Origin: Candidatus Omnitrophota bacterium | GTDB taxonomy: Bacteria > Omnitrophota > Gorgyraeia > Gygaellales > JAQTUX01 | Length of the DNA stretch: 64,000 bases | Assembly: GCA_028707125.1 (NCBI GenBank) | Contig: JAQTUX010000001.1 | Coordinates: 977,493-1,041,492 of the forward strand | Direction of reading: 5' to 3' | Part shown: positions 4,249 to 58,496 of the stretch, piece by piece | Layout of the letters: every line of letters starts with the position of its first letter | Numbering within the stretch: position 1 is the first letter of the stretch | Notes under the pieces: generated by a model | The model's input: only the letters and a program-made list of their open reading frames with translations | What the model was told of the DNA's origin: nothing | Databases searched by the model: none | Position numbers and translations under genes: made by a program

Positions 4249-4731
4249 ATGCGTATCCTGGGCATAGACCCCGGCCTTTATATAACCGGTTACGGCCTCA
4301 TAGACTGTAACAAGTCAAGGTGTTCATTGATAGAAGCGGGGATAATCAAAACAGGGCAGAAAGAAGCCCTGCCTGAACGGCTGGGCAGGATCTTCCGGGG
4401 GCTGTGCGGTTTAATTGAGGAAACGCGTCCGGACGCGATGGTTTTAGAAAAGCTGTATGCTCATTATAAGCACCCTCTTACTTCATGTTTGCTGGGCCAT
4501 GCCAGAGGGGCTGCCTGCCTGGCGGCGGCGAACTCCAAGATCGCCTTTGTTGAGTATCCTTCCACGCGCATCAAGAAGGCGATAGTGGGCAGGGGCAGCG
4601 CTTCAAAGGGGCAGGTAAAAAGAATGGTTGAGAGCATATTGGGCGCCGGCACGCTTGACGGGCCGTATGACGCGACGGACGCGCTGGCAGCCGCCATGAC
4701 GCATTTTCATGTCATCAGGAGCAAGGTATGA
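4249..4731 (+). CDS. ruvC: Holliday junction resolvase RuvC
   Basis: MRILGIDPGLYITGYGLID... is the RuvC fold, in yebC-ruvC-ruvA order. Confidence 0.9.
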   Translation: MRILGIDPGLYITGYGLIDCNKSRCSLIEAGIIKTGQKEALPERLGRIFRGLCGLIEETRPDAMVLEKLYAHYKHPLTSCLLGHARGAACLAAANSKIAFVEYPSTRIKKAIVGRGSASKGQVKRMVESILGAGTLDGPYDATDALAAAMTHFHVIRSKV

Positions 4732-8110: not shown

Positions 8111-9095
8111 AAGACAGACAGACCACATAGTTGAGCGGGTGAAGAAGCTGGGATTGACCCCTCATCTTTCCAAGGGCACAGAGCGCACCATTATCGGTGT
8201 CATAGGCCCGGAGGATATCCTGCGGGTTACGCCGCTTGAAGTATTCCCCGGAGTTGAGAGGGTGATGTCTGTGCTCGCTCCGTATAAGCTGGTTTCGCGC
8301 GAATTCAGGCAGCAGGATTCCGTGCTGGATCTGGGAAAGGGCGTTAAGGTGGGAGGCAAGGAAATAATAATTATGGCCGGGCCTTGCGCGATAGAGAGCT
8401 TGAAGTGCTTGAAAGATACAGCCAGGAAGGTAAAGGCGGCAGGCGCTAAAGTATTAAGAGGCGGCGCGTTCAAGCCGCGGACATCGCCTTACAGCTTCCA
8501 GGGATTGGGAGAGAAGGGGTTGAGATACCTTAAAGAGGTAGGCGATGAGTTCGGCCTTGTTACGGTAACCGAAGTGATGGACCCCAGGGACGTTGGGCTC
8601 GTGGCTGAGTTCTCTGATATGCTGCAGATAGGCGCCCGCAATATGCAGAATTTTAATCTCCTTAAAGAGGTCGGCGGCACACAAAAGCCGATACTGCTTA
8701 AAAGGGGTATGTCTTCTACCATAAAGGAATGGCTTATGTCTGCTGAGTATGTGCTTTCCGGGGGGAATTTTAACGTAGTCCTTTGCGAACGCGGCATACG
8801 CACCTTTGAGGATTTTACGCGCAACACCCTTGATATAAGCGCCATACCCGCGGTAAAACAGCTTTCGCATCTGCCGATAGTGGTTGACCCCAGTCATGCC
8901 GCTGGCAGATGGGGCATGGTCCCCAGTTTGTCAAAGGCAGCCATCGCGGCCGGCGCGGACGGCTTGATCATAGAGGTCCACCCTGATCCCGAAGAGGCCT
9001 TGTCAGACGGAGTGCAGTCCTTGCTTCCGGAAAGATTTAAGCAACTCATACAGGAATTAAAGGCGGTTGCCGCGGCAGTGGGAAGAAAGTTATGA
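8079..9095 (+). CDS. aroF: 3-deoxy-7-phosphoheptulonate (DAHP) synthase, type I-beta with an N-terminal ferredoxin-like regulatory domain
   Basis: [12 protein letters not shown]...[20 protein letters not shown]...DPSH is the KDO8PS/DAHPS I-beta core, preceded by an ~80-aa ACT/FL-like domain as in Thermotoga-type DAHPS. Confidence 0.85.
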
Positions 9096-9928
9096 GATTA
9101 TTCAGGAAAGTAGCGATAGTAGGGGTTGGCTTGATCGGCGGCTCAATAGGCCTTGAAATAAAAAAGAGGTCTTTGGCAGGAGAGGTCATTGGCATGGCGC
9201 GCCATAGGCGCACCCTCAGCATCGCCAGGAAAAGAGGCGCTATTGACAGGGGCGTATCCGGCCTTGAAGAAATTAAGGACGCCGACCTTGTTATTCTCGC
9301 CGCGCCTGTCGGCACTATCATAAATATGGCCCCGCGATTATCCAAGGTCTTGAAGCGGGGTTGTATCGTAAGCGACGTGGGCAGCACCAAGGCATCCATC
9401 GTAGAGAAGATGGAACGGCTCCTGCCGCGGGGCATTGATTTTGTGGGAGCGCATCCTCTGGCGGGAATGGAGAAGCGGGGAATATCCAACGCGCGGCTGG
9501 GGCTTTTTAAGGGCTCTATATGCGTTTTATGCCGGGCAAAGAATACAAGACAAGGGTCGGTTTTGAAAATAGGCAGGTTATGGCGCCTTTTGGGAAGCAG
9601 GGTTTGGGTCACATCGCCGAAAAACCACGACAGGACTCTCGCGTTTGCCAGCCATCTGCCCCATATAGCGGCCTTTAGTCTGGTTAACGCGGTACCTGCC
9701 GCCTGCCTGAGATTTTCCTCCGGCGGATTCAAGGATACCACGCGCATAGCCTTATCTGACGAGGAGATCTGGAAAGACATCTTTATCAGCAATAAGAAAT
9801 ATGTTACGGAATCCATTGAGTCGTATCAGGAAAAGATCGCGCAATTCAAGTCGGCTCTGCGTTCCAGCGATAGATCGCGCTTATCGCGCCTCATAAAGCA
9901 GGCCAGGAGTAAGAGAAGTTTAATATAA
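9092..9928 (+). CDS. tyrA: Prephenate/arogenate dehydrogenase
   Basis: [19 protein letters not shown]... Rossmann N-terminus and GAHPLAG motif. Confidence 0.85.
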
Positions 9929-9932
9929 ACAT

Positions 9933-10050
9933 TAATTACCAATTCACCAATGACCAAATCCCAATAAATGTCCAATTATCCAATTCCCAATTTTTCTCAT
10001 TGGACATTGGTAATTGGTAATTTATTTGTCATTGGTAATTGGTCATTGGA
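9933..10050. repeat. Imperfect ~118-bp palindrome made of 7 CCAAT-containing units followed by 7 ATTGG-containing units
   Basis: Left arm ..taCCAATtcaCCAATgaCCAAAtcCCAATaaatgtCCAATtatCCAATtcCCAAT, a tttttct centre, then the right arm cATTGGacATTGGtaATTGGtaatttatttgtcATTGGtaATTGGtcATTGG. Lies in the tyrA-cmk gap. Confidence 0.8.
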
Positions 10051-10067
10051 AATTTAATTTACTAGGT

Positions 10068-10724
10068 ATGATAATCGCCATAGACGGACCGGCGGGGGCA
10101 GGCAAGAGTACCGTCGCCAAAAAATTAGCCCAGAGATTGGGCTTTATTTATATTGATACCGGAGCGATGTACCGAGCAGTCACTCTGAAGCTGCTGGAGG
10201 GCCGCGTAGACATAAAAGACGAGAAGGCGGTTGTTGAGGCGGCAAGGAGCTGCAAGATCGGACTGAAGAATCCGCCCGGAGGCGGCCTCCAGGTATTTCT
10301 TGATTCAGCGGATGTTTCTCAGCAGATAAGGCAGCCGCGCATAACGGAATTCGTCTCCGATGTGGCCAGGATAAAAGAGGTAAGGTCTGTAATGCTGGGT
10401 TTGCAAAGGAAGGCGGGCGAGGGCAAAGACGCTGTTATTGACGGCAGGGATATCGGGACCGTGGTCTTTCCCGGCGCCGAGAAGAAATTTTATATTGACG
10501 CGGATTTTCAGGAGAGGGTAGAGCGGCGTTTCAAAGAGCTGGCGGCGGCAGGGCAGGATGTGAGCCGCGGCAGCGTGGAGAAAGATCTGCGTAACAGAGA
10601 TAGTATAGATTCAAACCGCGAGGTAGCGCCGTTGAAAAAGGCCGATGACGCGGTTCGTATTGACACGACGAATATGACGATAGAGGAAGTCGTCAATACT
10701 CTATTTAACCAAGTTTTAGCGTAA
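10068..10724 (+). CDS. cmk: Cytidylate kinase
   Basis: MIIAIDGPAGAGKSTVAKKLAQRLGFIYIDTGAMYRA is the canonical Cmk start. The listed ORF start at 10014 falls inside the palindrome, so ATG 10068 is preferred. Confidence 0.85.
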   Translation: MIIAIDGPAGAGKSTVAKKLAQRLGFIYIDTGAMYRAVTLKLLEGRVDIKDEKAVVEAARSCKIGLKNPPGGGLQVFLDSADVSQQIRQPRITEFVSDVARIKEVRSVMLGLQRKAGEGKDAVIDGRDIGTVVFPGAEKKFYIDADFQERVERRFKELAAAGQDVSRGSVEKDLRNRDSIDSNREVAPLKKADDAVRIDTTNMTIEEVVNTLFNQVLA

Positions 10725-10834
10725 AACGTAAAGCGAAAAGCGCAAAACTAAAGTGTAAAACTTAAAACTATATAACAAAAACTTTAAACTTTACGTTTTG
10801 GTTTTACGCTTTGCGCTTTACACTTTTCACTTTC
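10718..10834. repeat. Family-A intergenic palindromic repeat, copy 1 (cmk-lepA gap)
   Basis: agcgtaaaacgtaaagcgaaaagcgcaaaactaaagtgtaaaacttaaaacta...aaaactttaaactttacgttttggttttacgctttgcgctttacacttttc; over 95% identical to the copies at 38421 and 58383. The left end contains the cmk stop codon. Confidence 0.85.
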
Positions 10835-10837
10835 ATT

Positions 10838-12634
10838 ATGGATAAATCACTTATTCGCAACTTCAGCATAATTGCCCACATTGACCACGGTAAATCAACG
10901 CTTGCCGACAGGATCCTTGAGTTTACCGGAGCCGTGGACATGGGGCATACCAACGACCAGCTGTTGGACGATATGGACCTGGAGCGTGAGCGCGGTATCA
11001 CCATTAAGGCGTCTATGGTGAGGATAGATTACCATTCAAAGGGCGGCAGCGATTTTATATTGAATCTTATAGATACGCCCGGGCACGTTGATTTCAGCTA
11101 TGAGGTCTCAAAGTCGCTTGCCGCCTGCGAGGGCACGCTGCTTGTGGTGGATGCCACCCAGGGCATAGAGGCGCAGACAGTGGCGAATTATCTCCTGGCG
11201 AAGGAGAACCGCCTTAAGATAATACCCGTGGTCAACAAGATAGACCTGGGCAGCGCGGATATAGAGCGCACCTGCCTTCAGTTGATGGAGATGTTCCATT
11301 TCAACGAGGAAGAAATAATCCTCGCCTCCGCGAAGACCGGTGAAGGGATAGAAGAGATACTGGAAAGGGTGATCGGTTATTTTCCCGCCCCAAAAGGGAA
11401 TGAGAACGCGCCCCTCAAGGCGCTGGTGTTTGATTCGCGTTACGATACATTCAGGGGCGTCTACGTTTACGTCAAGGTGATAGACGGCAGGATCACGCCG
11501 GACCTTTCCCTGCGGTTGATGCAATCCAATAAGGTATATAAAGTTGAAGAGTTGGGGGTCTTCTATAATCTTAAGTTCGTAAAAGTAGATTCACTTGGCT
11601 GCGGCGAGGTCGGGTATATCCTGGCAAACATCCGCGACCCCGCCGAAATAGTCATAGGCGATACGCTTACCAACGAGGCCCAGCCGGCTGATTCCGTTCT
11701 ACCCGGTTACAAGAAAATGAACCCGCTTGTTTTTTGCGGCATATATCCGGTGAATGCCGGCGACTTTAACGGGCTGCGCGATGCCATAGATAAACTGAAG
11801 CTTTCCGACGCTTCCTTTATTTTTGAACCCGAGTATTCGGCTTCTTTCGGCCACGGCTTCCGCTGCGGATTTCTGGGGCTGCTGCATATGGAGATAGTCC
11901 ACGAGCGCCTGCAGAGGGAATATGACCTGAATTTAATACTCACCCTCCCCAATGTTGTCTACAAGGTGATAAACCGCAAAGGAGAGACAAAAGATGTTGA
12001 CTGCCCGCAGGAGCTGCCTGCCCCTCCCGATATACAGGAGGTCAAGGAACCGTTCGTGTCAATGATGTTCATAGTCCCGGTTGAGTCAATAGACCCTGTA
12101 TGCGAGATCGCCAAATCGCGAAGAGGTGTATATAAATCCACGGAGTTCATAGGGCAGGACAGGGTAAAGCTGATATTTGAAATGCCTTTATCCGAGATAA
12201 TCGTTGACTTTTATGATAAAATAAAGTCCATGACCAAGGGGTATGGCTCCATAGATTATGAATTTACGGATTACCGCCCCACTGAGATCGTGCGGCTTGA
12301 TATCCTGCTTAACGGCGTGATCTGCGACGCGTTTTCTTCTCTGACCCACAAAAGCAAGGCGCAGTCAAAGGGCAGGGGGATCGTTGAAAAACTTAAGGAG
12401 TTGATACCGCGCCAGCTCTTTGAGATCAGCGTCCAGGCGGCGGTGGGCTCTCAGGTGCTGGCGGCCGAGAAGATAAGGTCTGTGGGTAAACACGTGACCG
12501 CGAAGTGCTATGGCGGCGATATCACAAGAAAAAGGAAGCTTTGGGAAAAACAGAAAATGGGCAAGAAGAGGATGAAACAATTCGGCAAGGTAGAGATACC
12601 GCAGGAGGCCTTTTTGGAGGTATTAAAGATATGA
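10838..12634 (+). CDS. lepA: Elongation factor 4 (LepA)
   Basis: MDKSLIRNFSIIAHIDHGKSTLADRILE...; G domain, EF-G-like domains and the LepA C-terminus. ATG 10838 is preferred over the upstream in-repeat start. Confidence 0.9.
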   Translation: MDKSLIRNFSIIAHIDHGKSTLADRILEFTGAVDMGHTNDQLLDDMDLERERGITIKASMVRIDYHSKGGSDFILNLIDTPGHVDFSYEVSKSLAACEGTLLVVDATQGIEAQTVANYLLAKENRLKIIPVVNKIDLGSADIERTCLQLMEMFHFNEEEIILASAKTGEGIEEILERVIGYFPAPKGNENAPLKALVFDSRYDTFRGVYVYVKVIDGRITPDLSLRLMQSNKVYKVEELGVFYNLKFVKVDSLGCGEVGYILANIRDPAEIVIGDTLTNEAQPADSVLPGYKKMNPLVFCGIYPVNAGDFNGLRDAIDKLKLSDASFIFEPEYSASFGHGFRCGFLGLLHMEIVHERLQREYDLNLILTLPNVVYKVINRKGETKDVDCPQELPAPPDIQEVKEPFVSMMFIVPVESIDPVCEIAKSRRGVYKSTEFIGQDRVKLIFEMPLSEIIVDFYDKIKSMTKGYGSIDYEFTDYRPTEIVRLDILLNGVICDAFSSLTHKSKAQSKGRGIVEKLKELIPRQLFEISVQAAVGSQVLAAEKIRSVGKHVTAKCYGGDITRKRKLWEKQKMGKKRMKQFGKVEIPQEAFLEVLKI

Positions 12635-14585: not shown

Positions 14586-14612
14586 TTGACAAAATCCCGC
14601 TGATAAATATAA
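14586..14612 (+). promoter_or_regulatory. groESL promoter (sigma-70 type)
   Basis: TTGACA (14586-14591) followed by TGATAAATATAAT containing TATAAT (14607-12), upstream of the CIRCE element. Confidence 0.5.
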
Positions 14613-14660
14613 TAAGGACTTCAAGAGGAACAGAGGTTTCTCTTTTTTTAGGCCGTATAG

Positions 14661-16688: not shown

Positions 16689-16718
16689 TCCCTGATCAGT
16701 AAAATCGCAGATCAAAAA

Positions 16719-16750
16719 GGGCAGGATTAACCTCCTGCCCTTTTTATTTT
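16719..16750 (+). terminator. Rho-independent terminator after groEL
   Basis: GGGCAGGA ttaacc TCCTGCCC followed by TTTTTATTTT. Confidence 0.75.
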
Positions 16751-17232: not shown

Positions 17233-18671
17233 TGGAACTAAATCGCCTGACGATTCACGAACTCCTGGATAACAAAGAGATTGCCGCGCCTGATATCTTT
17301 GATTCTCTGGCCAGGAGGATAAAGGATGTAGAAGGTAAGGTTAAGGCGTTTGTAAGGGTTGACAGAACAGAGTCCGGCCAGCCGCGGCAAAATCCGCAAG
17401 CCGAGACCCTGTTAAAAGGCATACCGATAGTCATAAAGGATAACATCTGTGTTAAGGGCTCTCTCACAGAATGCTGCTCAAAGATATTGCAAGGATTCTC
17501 TCCGCCTTACGATGCTACAGTCATAACCAAATTGCGCGCGGCAGGGGCCGCGATCTACGGCTTGAGGGCCAATATGGATGAGTTTGCTTTTGGGTCATCC
17601 ACTGAGAATTCTTGTTTCGGCGCCTCGCGCAACCCGCATGACCCGTCCCGAGTTCCGGGCGGCTCATCAGGCGGTTCTGCCGCCTGCGTTGCCGCTGATG
17701 AAGCGATAGCCGCTTTGGGCTCTGACACAGGCGGCTCAATAAGACAGCCGGCTTCTTTTTGCGGGGTGGTGGGGCTTAAGCCGTCTTACGGCAGGGTATC
17801 CAGGTACGGATTGATCGCCTTTGCCTCAAGTTTAGACCAGATCGGCCCGATCACCAAGGATGTGCGCGACGCCGCCATACTGCTTAGCGTGATCGCCGGC
17901 TATGATGAAATGGATTCTACCAGCCAGAGGATCCCCGTGGCGGATTATACCAAGGCGTTGACAGGCGACATAAAGGGCCTTAAGATCGGCGTGCCTAAGG
18001 AGTATTTTGTTGAAGGTGTTGATAAAGAGGTCAAGGACGCGGCGCGGGAAGCGATAGAGGTCTTTAAAAAAAAGGGGGCTGTTGTCAGGGATATCTCGCT
18101 TAAATATACAGAGTACGCGGTGCCTACCTATTATATAATCGCCACTGCCGAGGCAAGCTCAAATCTGGCGAGATTTGACGCGGTGCAATACGGATACAGG
18201 CCAAAGCTTCCGGCTAAGGCGTCGCTTATAGAGATGTATAAGAAGGCGCGCGGTGAAGGTTTTGGCCAGGAGGCCAAGCGAAGGATAATACTCGGCACAT
18301 ACGTACTTTCTCATGGTTATTATGACGCGTATTATCTGCGGGCTCAGAAGGTGAGGACGTTGATAAAAGGCGATTTTGACCGGGCGCTTAATGAGGTTGA
18401 CTGCGTTATCACGCCTACATCTCCTTCCTGCGCGTTCAGGATCGGCGAGAAACTTGAAGACCCTCTTTCTATGTACCTGTCGGACATCTATACGATCTCC
18501 GCTAATCTCGCGGGTATTCCGGCCATATCCATACCCGCGGGAATGAGTAAAAGCGGCCTGCCCATAGGTATCCAGATATTGGGAAAGGCCTTTGATGAAG
18601 CGACGGTTCTAAGGGCCGCGCATAGTTTTGAACAGAACACCGAGTGGCATAAGATAAAGCCCAATCTTTAA
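17232..18671 (+). CDS. gatA: Glu-tRNA(Gln) amidotransferase subunit A
   Basis: Amidase signature GGSSGGSAACVAA and Ser-cisSer-Lys triad region. Confidence 0.9.
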   Translation: MELNRLTIHELLDNKEIAAPDIFDSLARRIKDVEGKVKAFVRVDRTESGQPRQNPQAETLLKGIPIVIKDNICVKGSLTECCSKILQGFSPPYDATVITKLRAAGAAIYGLRANMDEFAFGSSTENSCFGASRNPHDPSRVPGGSSGGSAACVAADEAIAALGSDTGGSIRQPASFCGVVGLKPSYGRVSRYGLIAFASSLDQIGPITKDVRDAAILLSVIAGYDEMDSTSQRIPVADYTKALTGDIKGLKIGVPKEYFVEGVDKEVKDAAREAIEVFKKKGAVVRDISLKYTEYAVPTYYIIATAEASSNLARFDAVQYGYRPKLPAKASLIEMYKKARGEGFGQEAKRRIILGTYVLSHGYYDAYYLRAQKVRTLIKGDFDRALNEVDCVITPTSPSCAFRIGEKLEDPLSMYLSDIYTISANLAGIPAISIPAGMSKSGLPIGIQILGKAFDEATVLRAAHSFEQNTEWHKIKPNL

Positions 18672-18672
18672 G

Positions 18673-20094
18673 ATGGAATACGAAACAGTCATAGGATTAG
18701 AAGTCCACGCGCAGCTAAAGACAAACACCAAGGCGTTCTGCGGCTGCAGGAATGAATTTGGTTTAGAGCCGAATTCTTCCGTGTGCCCTGTGTGCCTGGG
18801 GTTTCCCGGTTCGCTGCCGGTATTGAATAAGCGGGCTTTTGAGCTGGCCATTAAGACCGCGCTTGCCCTGGGCTGCCGGATACAGCCGCTTACAAAATTT
18901 GACAGGAAGAATTATTTTTATCCGGACCTGCCCAAGAATTTCCAGATATCTCAATACGACATGCCGCTTTCGCTGAATGGCTTCCTGCAGATAGAGGAAG
19001 AAGGATATAAGAAGAGGATCGGGATAAAACGCATACACCTGGAAGAGGACGCGGGCAAGCTTATGCACGAGGAAAACAACAGTTTAGTTGATTTTAACCG
19101 CGCGGGCACTCCCCTGATGGAGATCGTGAGCGAGCCGGATATGAGCTCGCCGCAGGAGGCATACGACTATCTGACCGCGCTCAAGCTTATATTGCAATAC
19201 CTGGAAGTGTCTGAGTGCAGCATGGAGAAAGGCACGTTGAGGTGCGACGCCAACATATCTTTACGCGAAAAAGGGGCTAAGGCGTTAGGGGTAAAAGCGG
19301 AATTAAAAAACCTCAACTCATTCAAGGCGGTCAAGGCCGCGCTGGAGTACGAAGAGATACGCCAGAGGGCTGCCCTTGAGGCAGGCGGGAAGATAATCCA
19401 GGAGACGCGCCTTTGGAATGACGCCTCTCTCAAGACGGTGCCGATGCGCAGCAAAGAGGAGGCGCAGGATTACAGGTATTTTCCCGAACCTGATCTGATC
19501 AGTTTTACGATCGGAGAAAAAGAGGTAGAGGGCATAAGGAAAACCATCCCGGAACTGCCGCTCAAGAGGAGGCAGAGATTCAGCGATGATTATGGCTTAA
19601 GCCGCTACGACGCGGGGGTGCTTATATCGGACAGGTTATTGGCGGATTATTTTGAGGGCTGCCTCAAGATAAGGAATGCCCCCAAGCCGATAGCGAACTG
19701 GCTCAACGGCCCGGTCATGTCCTTTATGAACGAGCGCGGCGCCTCTATCGCGGAACTGGGGATAAGGCAGGGCGATCTTATAGACCTGATCGCCCTGGTT
19801 GAAGACGGCACGATAAATAACCTGACCGCCAAGGATGTGCTCAGGGAAATGTTGCAGACAAAAAGCAGCCCCCGTGATATAATAAAACAGAAAGACCTGG
19901 CGCAGATCTCCGACAGCGGCGAATTGTCCGGCCTGATCGAAGAGGCGGTCAGAGAAAACGAGAAGACCGTAGCCGATTATAAGGCGGGGAAGGTATCGGC
20001 GCTTATGTTCCTTGTGGGACAGGTCATGCGCAAAAGCAAAGGCAAGGCCAACCCCAATCTATTGCAGGATATGATCAAAAGGAGATTGTCTTGA
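18673..20094 (+). CDS. gatB: Asp/Glu-tRNA(Asn/Gln) amidotransferase subunit B
   Basis: MEYETVIGLEVHAQLKTNTKAFCGC... is the GatB N-terminus, with a C-terminal YqeY-like domain. Confidence 0.9.
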   Translation: MEYETVIGLEVHAQLKTNTKAFCGCRNEFGLEPNSSVCPVCLGFPGSLPVLNKRAFELAIKTALALGCRIQPLTKFDRKNYFYPDLPKNFQISQYDMPLSLNGFLQIEEEGYKKRIGIKRIHLEEDAGKLMHEENNSLVDFNRAGTPLMEIVSEPDMSSPQEAYDYLTALKLILQYLEVSECSMEKGTLRCDANISLREKGAKALGVKAELKNLNSFKAVKAALEYEEIRQRAALEAGGKIIQETRLWNDASLKTVPMRSKEEAQDYRYFPEPDLISFTIGEKEVEGIRKTIPELPLKRRQRFSDDYGLSRYDAGVLISDRLLADYFEGCLKIRNAPKPIANWLNGPVMSFMNERGASIAELGIRQGDLIDLIALVEDGTINNLTAKDVLREMLQTKSSPRDIIKQKDLAQISDSGELSGLIEEAVRENEKTVADYKAGKVSALMFLVGQVMRKSKGKANPNLLQDMIKRRLS

Positions 20095-21389
20095 GGACCT
20101 CGAAGAAAATAATTATCGCCCTGTCACTAGGCATATTTCTGGCCGCGTTCATCGTGAACATATCTGAATCGGCAGCTAGGAAAAAAGACGAGCAGAAGGA
20201 CGAGCTTTTTAAGCAGGTTGAGATGTTCGCCGAGTCGTTAGGAATAATAAAGAAGGAATACACGGAAGAGCCGGATACAAAGAAACTGATCTACGGCGCG
20301 CTTCAAGGCATGCTGTCTTCCCTTGATACCCATAGCCAATTCCTTACGCCCGAAGATTACGCCGAGCTTAAGGTAGACACAACGGGAAAATTCGGAGGGC
20401 TGGGCATAGAGATAACGATGAAGGACGGCCTGCTTACCGTGGTTACGCCCATAGACGACACCCCCGCCTGGAAGGCGGGGATAAAGGCGGGAGACCGCAT
20501 AGTAAAGATCGACGGAGAGATCACCAAGGACATAACCTTGAGCGACGCGGTAAAGAAGTTAAGGGGCGAGCCGGGGAGCGAAGTAGCGCTTACGGTCTTA
20601 AGGGAAAATACCGCGAACCTGCTGGATTTTAAGATCGTAAGGAGCATTATAAAAGTAGAGGATATTAAAGACGCCTTGATCCTGGAGGATGGTGTTGCCT
20701 ACATACGTCTGGCGGAATTCAGGGAAAATACGCCCGCGGAGCTTGATAAGACGCTGACAAATCTACATAAGGAAGGGATGAAGAGCGTCATACTTGACCT
20801 GCGCAATAATCCCGGAGGCCTGCTTGACGCGGCGGTAAAGGTCGCGGAGCGTTTTCTTCCGGAGGGAAAGACCATCGTCTCCACAAAGGGCAGGGATGAG
20901 GCGCAGAATTCAGAGATGGTTTCAGGTAGCAGGGACTCTTATGGCATTCCCATGATCGTTCTGGTAAACGAGGGGTCGGCTTCCGGCAGCGAGATCGTGG
21001 CAGGCGCGCTTAAGGACCATAAAAGGGCGCTGATCGTAGGCGCCAAGACATTCGGCAAGGGCTCTGTCCAGACAGTCGTCCCGCTTAGCGACGGCTCCGC
21101 GCTAAAGCTTACCACAAGCTTGTATTTTACCCCTTCGGGCGAATCCATCCATAATAAAGGGGTCAGCCCTGATGTGGCTGTGGAGCAAGCAGCGCGGGAG
21201 CAGCCGGCCGCGCTGGAAGAGGAAGGCGTTAAGCCGGGTAAGGCGGAAGATATTTTTGACCAGATAGAGAAAGGGAATAAAGAACAGCAGGATAAAAAGA
21301 CAGTCATTGATTACAAGCTGGATAATCAGCTTATGCGCTCCGTTGATATACTTAAGGCGATCTCTATATATGAAGAAAAAAAATTATAA
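20091..21389 (+). CDS. ctpA: Carboxyl-terminal processing protease (S41 family, PDZ-containing)
   Basis: N-terminal signal anchor, a PDZ (GLGIEITMKDG...GDRIVKIDGE) and an S41 domain (NEGSASGSEIVAGALKD...GSVQ). TTG start with a GGAG RBS. Confidence 0.8.
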   Translation: MRTSKKIIIALSLGIFLAAFIVNISESAARKKDEQKDELFKQVEMFAESLGIIKKEYTEEPDTKKLIYGALQGMLSSLDTHSQFLTPEDYAELKVDTTGKFGGLGIEITMKDGLLTVVTPIDDTPAWKAGIKAGDRIVKIDGEITKDITLSDAVKKLRGEPGSEVALTVLRENTANLLDFKIVRSIIKVEDIKDALILEDGVAYIRLAEFRENTPAELDKTLTNLHKEGMKSVILDLRNNPGGLLDAAVKVAERFLPEGKTIVSTKGRDEAQNSEMVSGSRDSYGIPMIVLVNEGSASGSEIVAGALKDHKRALIVGAKTFGKGSVQTVVPLSDGSALKLTTSLYFTPSGESIHNKGVSPDVAVEQAAREQPAALEEEGVKPGKAEDIFDQIEKGNKEQQDKKTVIDYKLDNQLMRSVDILKAISIYEEKKL

Positions 21390-37259: not shown

Positions 37260-37615
37260 TATACGGCAACGGCGTAGATATAATTGAGGTCAACAGGATA
37301 AGACAGGCGGTGGAGAAATGGGGAGAGAGCTTTCTGGGCAAGGTATTCACTCAACAGGAACTGGAGTGCGCGAAAAAGAGGGGCTCGCCCTATGAACATC
37401 TGGCAGGCAGGTTTGCCGCCAAAGAGGCGGTTGCCAAGGCATTTTCCGACAATTCCATTACCTGGCGGGACATTGAGATAATAAACGATGGCAACGGCAA
37501 GCCATCCTGCAACATACTTAACGGCAAGAAAAAATATTTCCAGATACACGTTTCAATTTCTCATATAAAAAAATATGCGGTTGCCAGCGCGGTTGTTACG
37601 AAGGAACCCCAATAG
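37256..37615 (+). CDS. acpS: Holo-[acyl-carrier-protein] synthase
   Basis: MIYGNGVDIIEVNRI...GRFAAKEAVAKA is the AcpS family. Confidence 0.85.
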   Translation: MIYGNGVDIIEVNRIRQAVEKWGESFLGKVFTQQELECAKKRGSPYEHLAGRFAAKEAVAKAFSDNSITWRDIEIINDGNGKPSCNILNGKKKYFQIHVSISHIKKYAVASAVVTKEPQ

Positions 37616-38468
37616 CCATAAAGGCGATTTCGGCCGCGTATTTATTCTCGCGGCATCAAAAGGCATGACCGGAGCCGGTATACTCTGCGCGAAGGCGGCA
37701 ATGCGCGCGGGGGCAGGGCTGGTGACTCTCGGTATACCGAAGACGCAATACCCGATCGTGGCAAAGAGGCTGCTTGAGGCAATGACAGCGCCTCTGGAAG
37801 ATACTGGCGATGGGTGTTTGGCGCTGAAGGCATTAAGCCGCGTAAGGGATTTTTTAAAAAGAACTGATGTGCTGGTAATAGGCCCCGGCCTTTCGCGGCA
37901 TAAACAGACCCAGCAGCTGATACGTAAAGTCATCGCTGAATTTAACGGCAGCATGGTTGTGGATGCCGATGCTATAAATGCTTTGGCAGGGCATCTTGAT
38001 CTATTGTCTGTCCTGAAGAGCCCGCGGTCAGTAATGCTGACGCCTCATCCCGGAGAGTTTTCCCGGCTCGCGCGTATGTCCGCGGCAAAACTGCGGAAAG
38101 ACAGAAAAATATCCGCCCGGTCTTTCGCGAAGAAATATAAGATCGTTCTGGTGCTAAAAGGGCATAACAGCGTGGTCTGCGGCGAAGGCCGCTGCTACAT
38201 AAATAGGACAGGCAACCCGGGGATGGCTACTGCCGGAAGCGGCGATGTGCTTAGCGGTATGGCGGCCGCGTTTCTCGCGCAGGGGCTGGATACGTTTGAG
38301 GCGGCAAAGACAGCCGTGTATCTGCACGGGCTGGCAGGGGATCTGGCAGCCAGGGAGAAAACGCAGATATCCTTGATAGCGTCCGATATTATAGAGAAGA
38401 TCCCGGAAGCGGTTAAACAAAGCGTAAAACGTAAAGCGAAAAGCGCAAAAGTAAAGTGTAAAATTTAA
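37575..38468 (+). CDS. nnrD: ADP-dependent (S)-NAD(P)H-hydrate dehydratase (YjeF C-terminal domain)
   Basis: HKGDFGRVFILAASKGMTGAGILCAKAA...GPGLS...LTPHPGEF...GNPGMATAGSGDVLSG are carbohydrate-kinase-like Nnr2 motifs. The last ~17 aa (KQSVKRKAKSAKVKCKI) are encoded by repeat A2. Confidence 0.8.
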   Translation: MRLPARLLRRNPNSHKGDFGRVFILAASKGMTGAGILCAKAAMRAGAGLVTLGIPKTQYPIVAKRLLEAMTAPLEDTGDGCLALKALSRVRDFLKRTDVLVIGPGLSRHKQTQQLIRKVIAEFNGSMVVDADAINALAGHLDLLSVLKSPRSVMLTPHPGEFSRLARMSAAKLRKDRKISARSFAKKYKIVLVLKGHNSVVCGEGRCYINRTGNPGMATAGSGDVLSGMAAAFLAQGLDTFEAAKTAVYLHGLAGDLAAREKTQISLIASDIIEKIPEAVKQSVKRKAKSAKVKCKI

Positions 38469-38534
38469 AACTATATAACAAAAACTTTAAACTTTACGTT
38501 TTGGTTTTACGCTTTGCGCTTTACACTTTTCGCT
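38421..38534. repeat. Family-A intergenic palindromic repeat, copy 2 (nnr-recX gap; left arm in-frame with the nnr 3' end)
   Basis: agcgtaaaacgtaaagcgaaaagcgcaaaagtaaagtgtaaaatttaaaactatataacaaaaactttaaactttacgttttggttttacgctttgcgctttacacttttcgct. Confidence 0.85.
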
Positions 38535-54735: not shown

Positions 54736-55520
54736 GCCAGAATTTCCTGGTTGAGAAGAATATCAGGAAAAAGATACTGGATATCTGTTCTTTTAAGCAG
54801 GGCGATACCGTATTGGAGATCGGCGCGGGCAGGGGAGAGATGACCTGTCTGATCGCGCCGCTGGTAAAACGGCTGATCGCCGTAGAGTTTGACAGAGATC
54901 TATGCGAAGGCCTGAAACCACGGCTGAAAGAATTCGGCAATGTTGAATTGATATGCGGCGATATCTTAAAAGTAAATATCGCCGGCCTGGGTAAGGGTAA
55001 ACGCATAAAAGTATTCGGCAACATACCCTATTATCTCACCACCCCCATCATAATCCACCTTGTCAAACACAAGAAGCATATCAGTAATGTCTATTTGACC
55101 GTGCAAAAGGAATTCGCGCGGCGCATAGTCGCAAAACCCGGCTCAAAAGATTACAGCTCATTCAGTATTTACTGCGGTTATTACCTGATGCCGCGTCTTG
55201 ACTTTGTTATCTCCAGGGGGTGTTTCTACCCTGTCCCTAAAGTAGATTCGGCGTTTTTGAATATTGAAGTAAGGAGAAGGCCTCCTTGCATAGCCGGCAA
55301 TGAGGAGTTTTTCTTTAAAATTGTCAGAGCCGCCTTTAACCAGCGCAGGAAAACCCTGAAAAACTCCCTCAAGAAGATCATCGATCCCGTGGAACTATCT
55401 TCAATTCTGGCAAAACGCGGCCTGAGGCCGGATATAAGAGCCGAGAAGTTAAGCATAGACGATTTCGCCTATATAAGCAGGAAATTTTTGACCCAGAAAA
55501 AAGATATACGAATATGTTGA
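54708..55520 (+). CDS. rsmA: 16S rRNA (adenine1518/1519-N6)-dimethyltransferase RsmA/KsgA
   Basis: KKRLGQNFLVEKNI....VLEIGAGRGEMT...NIPY are KsgA motifs. Confidence 0.9.
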   Translation: MRAYPKKRLGQNFLVEKNIRKKILDICSFKQGDTVLEIGAGRGEMTCLIAPLVKRLIAVEFDRDLCEGLKPRLKEFGNVELICGDILKVNIAGLGKGKRIKVFGNIPYYLTTPIIIHLVKHKKHISNVYLTVQKEFARRIVAKPGSKDYSSFSIYCGYYLMPRLDFVISRGCFYPVPKVDSAFLNIEVRRRPPCIAGNEEFFFKIVRAAFNQRRKTLKNSLKKIIDPVELSSILAKRGLRPDIRAEKLSIDDFAYISRKFLTQKKDIRIC

Positions 55521-55545
55521 CAACCTGCCATAAATCGTATATAAT
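55517..55545 (+). promoter_or_regulatory. Candidate sigma-70 promoter for the IMPDH-like/guaA pair
   Basis: TTGACA (overlapping the rsmA stop), a 17-nt spacer, then TATAAT (55540-45). Confidence 0.45.
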
Positions 55546-58382: not shown

Positions 58383-58496
58383 AGCGTAAAACGTAAAGCG
58401 AAAAGCGCAAAACTAAAGTGTAAAACTTAAAACTAACAAACAAAAACTTTAAACTTTACGTTTTGGTTTTACGCTTTGCGCTTTACACTTTTCGCT
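58383..58496. repeat. Family-A intergenic palindromic repeat, copy 3 (guaA-dnaE gap)
   Basis: agcgtaaaacgtaaagcgaaaagcgcaaaactaaagtgtaaaacttaaaactaacaaacaaaaactttaaactttacgttttggttttacgctttgcgctttacacttttcgct. Confidence 0.85.

Follow-up and report, generated by a model that had tools for sequence, protein, structure and literature searches.

We analysed a 64,000-nucleotide (nt) stretch of DNA from a Candidatus Omnitrophota bacterium (assembly GCA_028707125.1, contig JAQTUX010000001.1, forward-strand positions 977,493 to 1,041,492), hereafter the window, which carries an array of CCAAT and ATTGG heptanucleotides between the genes tyrA and cmk. This array, called element A, takes up nearly all of the intergenic spacer: the insert accounts for ~132 nt and the remainder is a few junction bases, with the 5′ arm beginning 5 nt past the tyrA stop codon and the 3′ arm ending 9 nt short of the cmk start codon. 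At 29% G+C the spacer differs from the window as a whole (~50% G+C). The features of the locus, in window coordinates, are as follows.

9092..9928, + strand: tyrA, prephenate dehydrogenase (PF02153, PF20463), with a TAA stop codon at 9926-9928
9929..10067, + strand: element A, the whole tyrA–cmk spacer, 139 nt, G+C fraction 0.29
9933..9991, + strand: 5′ arm of A, seven degenerate NNCCAAT heptamers (Tandem Repeats Finder period 7, 8.6 copies)
9992..9998, + strand: centre and apical loop of A, TTTTCTC
9999..10058, + strand: 3′ arm of A, six ATTGGNN heptamers and one degenerate ATTTATT (Tandem Repeats Finder period 7, 7.4 copies)
10068..10724, + strand: cmk, with its true start at ATG 10068; 10014-10067 is non-coding

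A preliminary description of this DNA, made from the letters alone, had counted seven CCAAT units followed by seven ATTGG units. The array is there as described, but the count has to be corrected to six exact units and one degenerate unit per arm. Exact CCAAT lies on the + strand at 9939, 9947, 9961, 9972, 9980 and 9987, with a degenerate CCAAA at 9954, and exact ATTGG lies at 9999, 10006, 10013, 10031, 10038 and 10045, with a degenerate ATTTA within the 18-nt gap 10013–10031. Units are spaced 8, 7, 7, 11, 8 and 7 nt apart in the 5′ arm and 7, 7, 18, 7 and 7 nt apart in the 3′ arm, where ATTGGTA and ATTGGTC are the dominant forms. Twelve of the 87 CCAAT/ATTGG sites of the window are thereby packed into 111 nt, where 0.13 would be expected from how densely the remaining 75 occur (Poisson P ~4e-20). 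Outside A the motif is depleted, these 75 sites comparing with a whole-window expectation of 162 ± 12 from dinucleotide-preserving shuffles, and the lag-7 autocorrelation of the spacer reaches 0.55 against ~0.25 in ordinary gaps. The array is real and far beyond chance.

Around the TTTTCTC centre, the two period-7 arms form the unit-built palindrome that had been proposed. An ungapped alignment pairs 9931-9987 with 10002-10058 (57 nt each, 14 nt apart) at 70% complementarity, and a gapped one matches 46 of 62 columns (74%). As RNA, A is predicted to fold into a single long imperfect hairpin with a 7-nt apical loop and a minimum free energy of -41.0 kcal/mol, compared with -26.0 ± 3.8 kcal/mol for shuffled sequences (z = -3.97; 0 of 200 shuffles as good), while folding as DNA gives z = -5.16; the hairpin reading of the preliminary description therefore holds. 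The stem comprises 31 A-U pairs, 12 G-C pairs and one G-U pair. In eight of nine elements the antisense fold is as stable as that of the sense RNA or more so, and G-U pairs are scarce. Pairing in A follows Watson-Crick rules in the DNA itself and does not favour the sense RNA.

Conventional signals were sought in A and rejected. There is no sign of RNA-level selection on the sense strand, as the sense fold is never clearly more stable and the differences among copies of a related element of the window (family B, below) are not compensatory. A canonical intrinsic terminator is not matched either: the scan returned none inside A, which has no GC-rich stem followed by a U-tract, and the tail reads AAAUUUAAUUUAC. 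The sole sigma-70 promoter match in A is weak, agreeing at 9 of 12 positions, and its -10 hexamer overlaps the ATG, so it was dismissed as a promoter for cmk. Elsewhere the host genome uses canonical terminator and promoter signals, as seen in a textbook intrinsic terminator after groEL at 16714-16745 (AAAAAGGGCAGG...CCTGCCCTTTTT-ATTTTT) and in perfect TTGACA-N16/17-TATAAT promoters at 14586-14613 and 55517-55545. Rfam 15 at the gathering threshold recovered only RNase P RNA and three tRNAs in the window, and a permissive scan of 9850-10900 returned only far sub-threshold eukaryotic microRNA hairpin models.

The apparent upstream extension of cmk had been suspected to be an artefact of reading through the array, and this is borne out. 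The extension is the maximal open reading frame (ORF) opening at TTG 10014, whereas the deposited NCBI protein of 218 residues starts at ATG 10068 and all 40 homologues inspected begin with MI(I/V)A(I/V)DGP. The best matches to Cmk in other genomes come from Omnitrophota, at up to 62-68% identity. Nearly all genes of the window are on the + strand and tightly packed, all those scanned with Pfam are housekeeping genes, and no regulator, rep gene or origin was found near A. GC skew is positive throughout the 64 kb (+0.02 to +0.19).

The locus was then compared with its relatives, of which one Logan contig (SRR33086907; L082) is the sole close comparison, the next TyrA homologue being 64% identical. 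L082 has the same tyrA-cmk-lepA order as the window, 93% nucleotide identity over 1885 nt and 92% amino acid identity in Cmk. It carries neither A nor B1, the palindrome that occupies the cmk-lepA junction of the window: its tyrA|cmk gap is 7 nt long and its cmk and lepA genes overlap by ATGA. In three further relatives (L083-L085, 64-68% identity) and in most Omnitrophota loci in GTDB the genes also abut directly at these junctions. The only other sequence with A is a Logan contig (L001) that is 100% identical to the window. On this comparative evidence A is a young, lineage-specific insertion and not a conserved site, because it is absent from a syntenic relative of 93% identity and from most other Omnitrophota relatives.

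The interior of A appears older than its residence at the locus. Divergence between the window and L082 at 4-fold degenerate sites is 35/270, or 0.13, while the units of A are only 73% identical to one another in the 5′ arm and 85% in the 3′ arm. An array built up in place would be expected to be more homogeneous, and because units and arms are more diverged than the neutral 0.13, A probably arrived pre-formed and already degenerate, as B1 evidently did. Insertion-associated mutagenesis, considered from diverged codons at the junction, was rejected since Cmk C-termini are variable in all homologues.

The preliminary description had presented A as a third instance of a palindrome built from repeated units, with a third unrelated unit, and this stands. 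Four other period-7 palindromes lie in the window:

10718..10831, + strand: B1, CGTAAAA/TTTACGC heptamer palindrome between cmk and lepA, supplying the cmk stop codon and absent in L082
30422..30575, + strand: C, TAAACTC/AAACCCA...TGTTTAG palindrome between cdhD and the gene for a pterin-binding enzyme
38421..38534, + strand: B2, between the NAD(P)HX dehydratase gene and recX, with the upstream ORF running through the 5′ arm
58383..58496, + strand: B3, between guaA and dnaE

With A, these five palindromes fill 5 of ~16 sizeable gaps, have G+C fractions of 0.29-0.34 and lag-7 autocorrelations of 0.55-0.64, and use three unrelated unit families: CCAATNN (A), CGTAAAA (B) and TAAACTC/AAACCCA (C). 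No second CCAAT array was found in the window.

Family B consists of three 114-nt copies, ~97% identical, with unrelated flanks and sharp boundaries (AGCGTAAAACG ... CTTTTCGCT). Judged from its copies it is a dispersed repeat family, and it is presumably mobile. In a relative of 71% identity (L226) the B2 site is empty and the dehydratase gene abuts recX directly. An exact search for a 38-nt core of family B in JGI metagenomes gave 0 matches, the host genome evidently being outside that collection. Assignment to REP/REPIN elements was rejected, as there is no GTAG/CGTC-headed REP in A or B and no Y1 transposase in the window. Of the traits of miniature inverted-repeat transposable elements, inverted termini are trivially present; A has one copy in the window and B has three.

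Several observations attach to these sister elements. The NAD(P)HX dehydratase ORF (37575-38468) crosses the 5′ arm of B2 at 38415-38468 and gains a Lys-rich tail there, KQSVKRKAKSAKVKCKI; its Pfam domain stops ~20 residues before this tail. A contig labelled Syntrophales bacterium (L225; GCA_028687075.1, JAQUAV010000388.1) encodes a RecX 93% identical to that of the window, followed by the same alaS gene, and is probably a mis-binned Omnitrophota contig. It starts inside recX, at the junction where the window has B2, as if assembly had broken at the repeat, and no B2 junction can be read from it since the sequence opens within recX. Element C mixes TAAACTC, AAACCCT and AAACCCA and is the most stable of the five palindromes at -48 kcal/mol; AAACCCT is also the plant-type telomere heptamer, probably by coincidence.

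Independent palindromes with other units occur at the same junctions in distant Omnitrophota, with GTTATCT units at tyrA|cmk in one metagenome-assembled genome (L020, STF1_189) and TGTGTAA units at cmk|lepA in another (L004, PPR_0471). The former has three palindromes within 7 kb (392-500, 1826-1955 and 4596-4700), built from GTTATCT, AAGGNAA and AGAAGCA, one of them in the tyrA|cmk gap. In the latter, a TGTGTAA/TTACACA palindrome at 2046-2192 fills the cmk|lepA gap, and the cmk stop codon lies inside its first unit. A third genome (L017, Omnitrophica CG11_..._42_13) has a ~130-nt cmk|lepA gap at 9951-10090 with decayed CGTAAAG/CGTAAAA-like units and a lag-7 autocorrelation of 0.44, which may be what is left of a B-like element at the junction that B1 occupies in the window.

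Beyond this phylum, a search of JGI metagenomes for three CCAAT heptamers followed, across a spacer of 3-33 nt, by two ATTGG heptamers (25 specified bases) gave at least 120 matches where the chance expectation is ~0. Among the matches listed, G+C content of the contigs spans 34-71% (median 58%), CCAATGA, which reads TGACCAA when the register is shifted, is the unit most often used (27% of unit pairs), only core stretches of 19-28 nt are shared with A, and by crude gene calls the flanking genes are co-directional in 41 cases, convergent in 12 and divergent in 7. Because only such core stretches are common to both, the metagenome palindromes are convergent with A and not homologous to it. The contigs that carry them also hold 16 palindromes of other units in 0.67 Mb, compared with 3 in 1.30 Mb of unselected GTDB loci, and this ~10x difference in density indicates that carrying such palindromes is a property of particular genomes. 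In IMG/VR, the same form of pattern placed the CCAAT core at 4 loci and the CGTAA core, that of family B, at 8, against 0, 0, 0, 1 and 1 for five control cores, which suggests a real unit preference among heptamer palindromes, with the reservation that few loci are involved and that both test cores were picked after the fact. The reverse arrangement, with ATTGG first, brings up (GGGGATT)n(AATCCCC)n palindromes, a separate class whose contigs have 21-28% G+C.

Some of the loci recovered are of interest in themselves. Very AT-rich IMG/VR contigs (L210-L212) have the (GGGGATT)n(AATCCCC)n palindromes at their ends, possibly as telomere-like termini. A 21.7-kb high-GC viral contig (L206/L207; IMGVR_UViG_3300017987_002545) contains three CCAATGA palindromes with arrays of up to ~10 units, and the contig IMGVR_UViG_3300044524_000063 (L213, L217) contains four AATTCGT/ACGAATT palindromes within 33 kb together with GCGATCGC, the cyanobacterial HIP1 octamer. 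In Natroniella sulfidigena (L039), two related elements at 18585-18725 and 20431-20575 have GTTGACA/GTTTACA heptamer arms and a ~80-nt core, each adjoining a perfect 12-14-bp GC-containing hairpin (AATGTGGCAC...GTGCCACATT). When the repeat sequences were looked for in the full text of the literature, nothing came back but human primers with no connection to them.

Element A displays the traits of inverted-pair heptamer and STRR-type repeats, namely tandem 7-nt units, an inverted complementary array and an intergenic position near ORF ends. By these sequence traits it belongs to a known, functionally unexplained class of inverted-pair heptamers, to which Omnitrophota adds a new phylum. The cyanobacterial 7-bp STRR repeats, whose original description is reportedly that of Mazel in 1990, resemble the elements of the window in unit length, in having several unit types per genome, in forming hairpins and in lying between co-transcribed genes. 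The classical STRR units TTGGTCA and CCCCAAT contain the ATTGG/CCAAT core, and the ATTGGTC/ATTGGTA units in the 3′ arm of A have the same ATTGG core. STRR repeats differ from A in belonging to another phylum, in lacking homology to it beyond the unit, in occurring mostly as direct arrays and in having many copies per genome, where a single CCAAT locus is documented here within 64 kb. In filamentous cyanobacteria their hairpins occur between co-transcribed genes such as hupS and hupL, where they have been suggested to stabilise the transcript or to couple translation (PMC2670836).

According to Mrazek (2007), as relayed by two later papers (PMC4679880, PMC4692102), heptanucleotides are the over-represented unit of long simple repeats in many bacteria, and polymerase slippage has been proposed as the source of such repeats. 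The closest counterpart in arrangement is found in Xanthomonas, where each genome has 70-75 loci of convergent inverted GGGAATC array pairs that are capable of forming stem-loops and to which no function has been assigned (Rehm et al. 2015, PMC4692102). Like A, these are close convergent arrays of tandem 7-nt units for which a stem-loop or cruciform is possible, and they are intergenic, within ~50 bp of ORF ends, as A is likewise intergenic near ORF ends; they are rare between divergent genes and vary in length among relatives (PMC4692102). Unlike A, they use one G-rich, G-quadruplex-capable unit genome-wide and 83% of their loci are common to the species, whereas the elements of the window have AT-rich units that differ by locus, A is missing in a 93%-identical relative, and in family B the whole 114-nt element is copied.

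Other systems are more distant. The TAACTGA repeats of marine Beggiatoaceae abut start codons, and S1, cold-shock protein (Csp) and CsrA have been proposed as their binders (MacGregor 2015, PMC4679880). They share with A the intergenic heptamers abutting start or stop codons and a sporadic phylogenetic distribution, and the stop codons inside the unit were counted as a likeness; unlike A, nearly all are direct (one inverted among 170), use a single unit and are oriented upstream of start codons. A universal rule that the units carry stop codons in all frames was rejected, as the CCAATTG and AGAAGCA arrays have none. For family B, the nearest mobile analogue is the REPIN/RAYT system (Bertels and Rainey 2011, PMC3116915), likewise made of ~100-nt hairpin-forming inverted doublets that are intergenic, dispersed in near-identical copies and free of target-site duplications. 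The differences are that the arms here are tandem heptamers and not 20-40-nt REP sequences with a GTAG/CGTC head, that no RAYT gene is seen in the window, and that A has no known second copy. The (A)n(T)n palindromes of Fusarium organelles, for which mobility has been proposed (PMC7218506), combine a simple repeat with its complement and vary in presence among close relatives as A does, but they are mitochondrial mononucleotide runs and serve as an analogy only.

In our assessment it is moderately probable that A is a tolerated or selfish palindromic heptanucleotide repeat that was inserted pre-formed at a gene junction. It would have been installed either through templated insertion or as a pasted copy of a dispersed repeat, with no growth in place. 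Its 7-nt period would then be the trace of replication slippage that makes and maintains such arrays, heptamers being the favoured unit in bacteria, and intrastrand template switching would keep the arms symmetric. It may survive since a compact genome tolerates such elements only at gene junctions. Since cmk lacks a plausible promoter, A is probably transcribed through within an aro-tyrA-cmk-lepA message, in which it would fold into the predicted ~45-bp AU-rich hairpin between cistrons. A likely incidental effect would be to abolish the ancestral translational coupling of tyrA and cmk, and the hairpin may serve as a target for a double-stranded RNase or as an exonuclease barrier; any effect would not pass through sequence-specific protein recognition.

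Several points weigh against this account. No second copy of A was found in the window or by blastn against phages and plasmids, a search that returned no match and in which the low-complexity filter may play a part. Neither A nor any of the three B copies shows a target-site duplication, and a Pfam scan of ~45 window genes shows no transposase, integrase or reverse transcriptase. The mobility of A is argued from family B and from the internal age of A itself. Moreover, the same junctions are struck repeatedly across lineages, which could reflect selection for a hairpin and not mere tolerance, and the excess of CCAAT and CGTAA cores over controls hints at a unit preference beyond pure slippage.

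Selection for a hairpin is the substance of a rival that we regard as unlikely, in which A is a functional intercistronic RNA structure that protects the aro-tyrA mRNA from 3′-exonucleases, provides an RNase III site or causes partial termination, so that expression of the amino-acid operon is decoupled from cmk and lepA. The strong predicted fold, the position of A at the boundary between aromatic amino-acid genes and cmk, where it spans the whole distance between stop and start codons, and the independent palindromes at the same junctions in L020 and L004 would all fit. So would the rarity of metagenome CCAAT palindromes between divergent genes, a bias shared with Xanthomonas (PMC4692102), and the proposal that STRR hairpins raise transcript stability or couple translation (PMC2670836). 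Absence of A from the 93%-identical relative and most Omnitrophota would nevertheless make the function dispensable, the sense RNA gains no stability over the antisense, and none of the differences among the three B copies is compensatory. A also lacks the GC-rich stem and U-tract of a terminator, though the genome has canonical ones, and a strong terminator would silence cmk, an essential core housekeeping gene, because no promoter follows. Neutral growth in place, by which a short ancestral hairpin expanded through slippage and quasi-palindrome correction after the split from L082, would explain why no other copy of A was found in the window or among phages and plasmids, and heptamer slippage has been proposed as the origin of such arrays, as relayed in PMC4679880 and PMC4692102. 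We consider it improbable: the ancestral junction, as preserved in L082, is only 7 nt long and forms no hairpin, the units and arms are 15-27% diverged against a neutral 0.13 in total since the split, and the neighbouring B1 demonstrably comes from a dispersed family.

The preliminary description had likened A to iterons, double-stranded DNA sites for a dimeric regulator; the point in favour is the dyad, whose two halves have six to seven units each, direct CCAAT in the first and inverted in the second. We find this highly improbable: the array is not conserved at 93% nucleotide identity despite synteny and it is the single one in 64 kb, an outcome that the preliminary description had itself named as refuting; CCAAT is otherwise depleted (75 sites outside A vs 162 expected for the whole window), 7-bp phasing places successive sites 240 degrees apart on the helix, and the surrounding genes are housekeeping genes with no regulator, rep gene or origin nearby. 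Sister elements use other units, so that period and dyad are common to them but the recognition sequence is not. There is also a small chance that the units are putative sites for a single-strand-binding protein with a ~7-nt footprint, such as a cold-shock-domain protein or S1, which would coat one arm and set hairpin formation as a protein- or temperature-titrated switch. The strict 7-nt period and the non-random choice of units across unrelated genomes speak for such a protein. The single-strand contacts of cold-shock domains extend over 6-7 nt, and a preference for ATTGG/CCAAT was reported early on, but more recent work on Csp specificity points to T-rich sites in place of ATTGG and counts against a Csp array. 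The proposal of S1, Csp and CsrA for the TAACTGA heptamers (PMC4679880) is a further point in favour, while the wholly different units of elements within one genome and the absence of A in L082 are points against. A broader version, to which we give only a slim chance, treats heptamer palindromes as a widespread self-propagating class defined by structure, which a conserved host factor with a 7-nt single-strand footprint, such as a cold-shock-domain protein, writes, spreads or reads; this factor would be the reason why units converge in unrelated bacteria and phages on a few preferred heptamers, among them CCAATNN (TGACCAA commonest) and CGTAANN. If that were true, A would be a hairpin switch titrated by Csp, of recent arrival in its operon.

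For annotation, heptamer palindromes are a hazard in that they give false 5′ extensions, as at cmk, but they also give real C-terminal tails, as in the NAD(P)HX dehydratase (38415-38468), and they may break assemblies. To what is known of such repeats, the empty-site comparison and the recurrence in metagenomes are useful additions. The recurrence of the CCAAT core without further shared sequence makes unit preference testable, and L082 and the window form a clean before/after pair, with empty, tight or overlapping junctions in the one and palindromes in the other. In all, the window holds two freshly installed palindromes 650 nt apart (A and B1), one of them from a dispersed 114-nt family, and together the two fresh insertions and the dispersed family argue that palindromes of this kind are able to move as units, a point that the work on Xanthomonas and Nostoc had not established.

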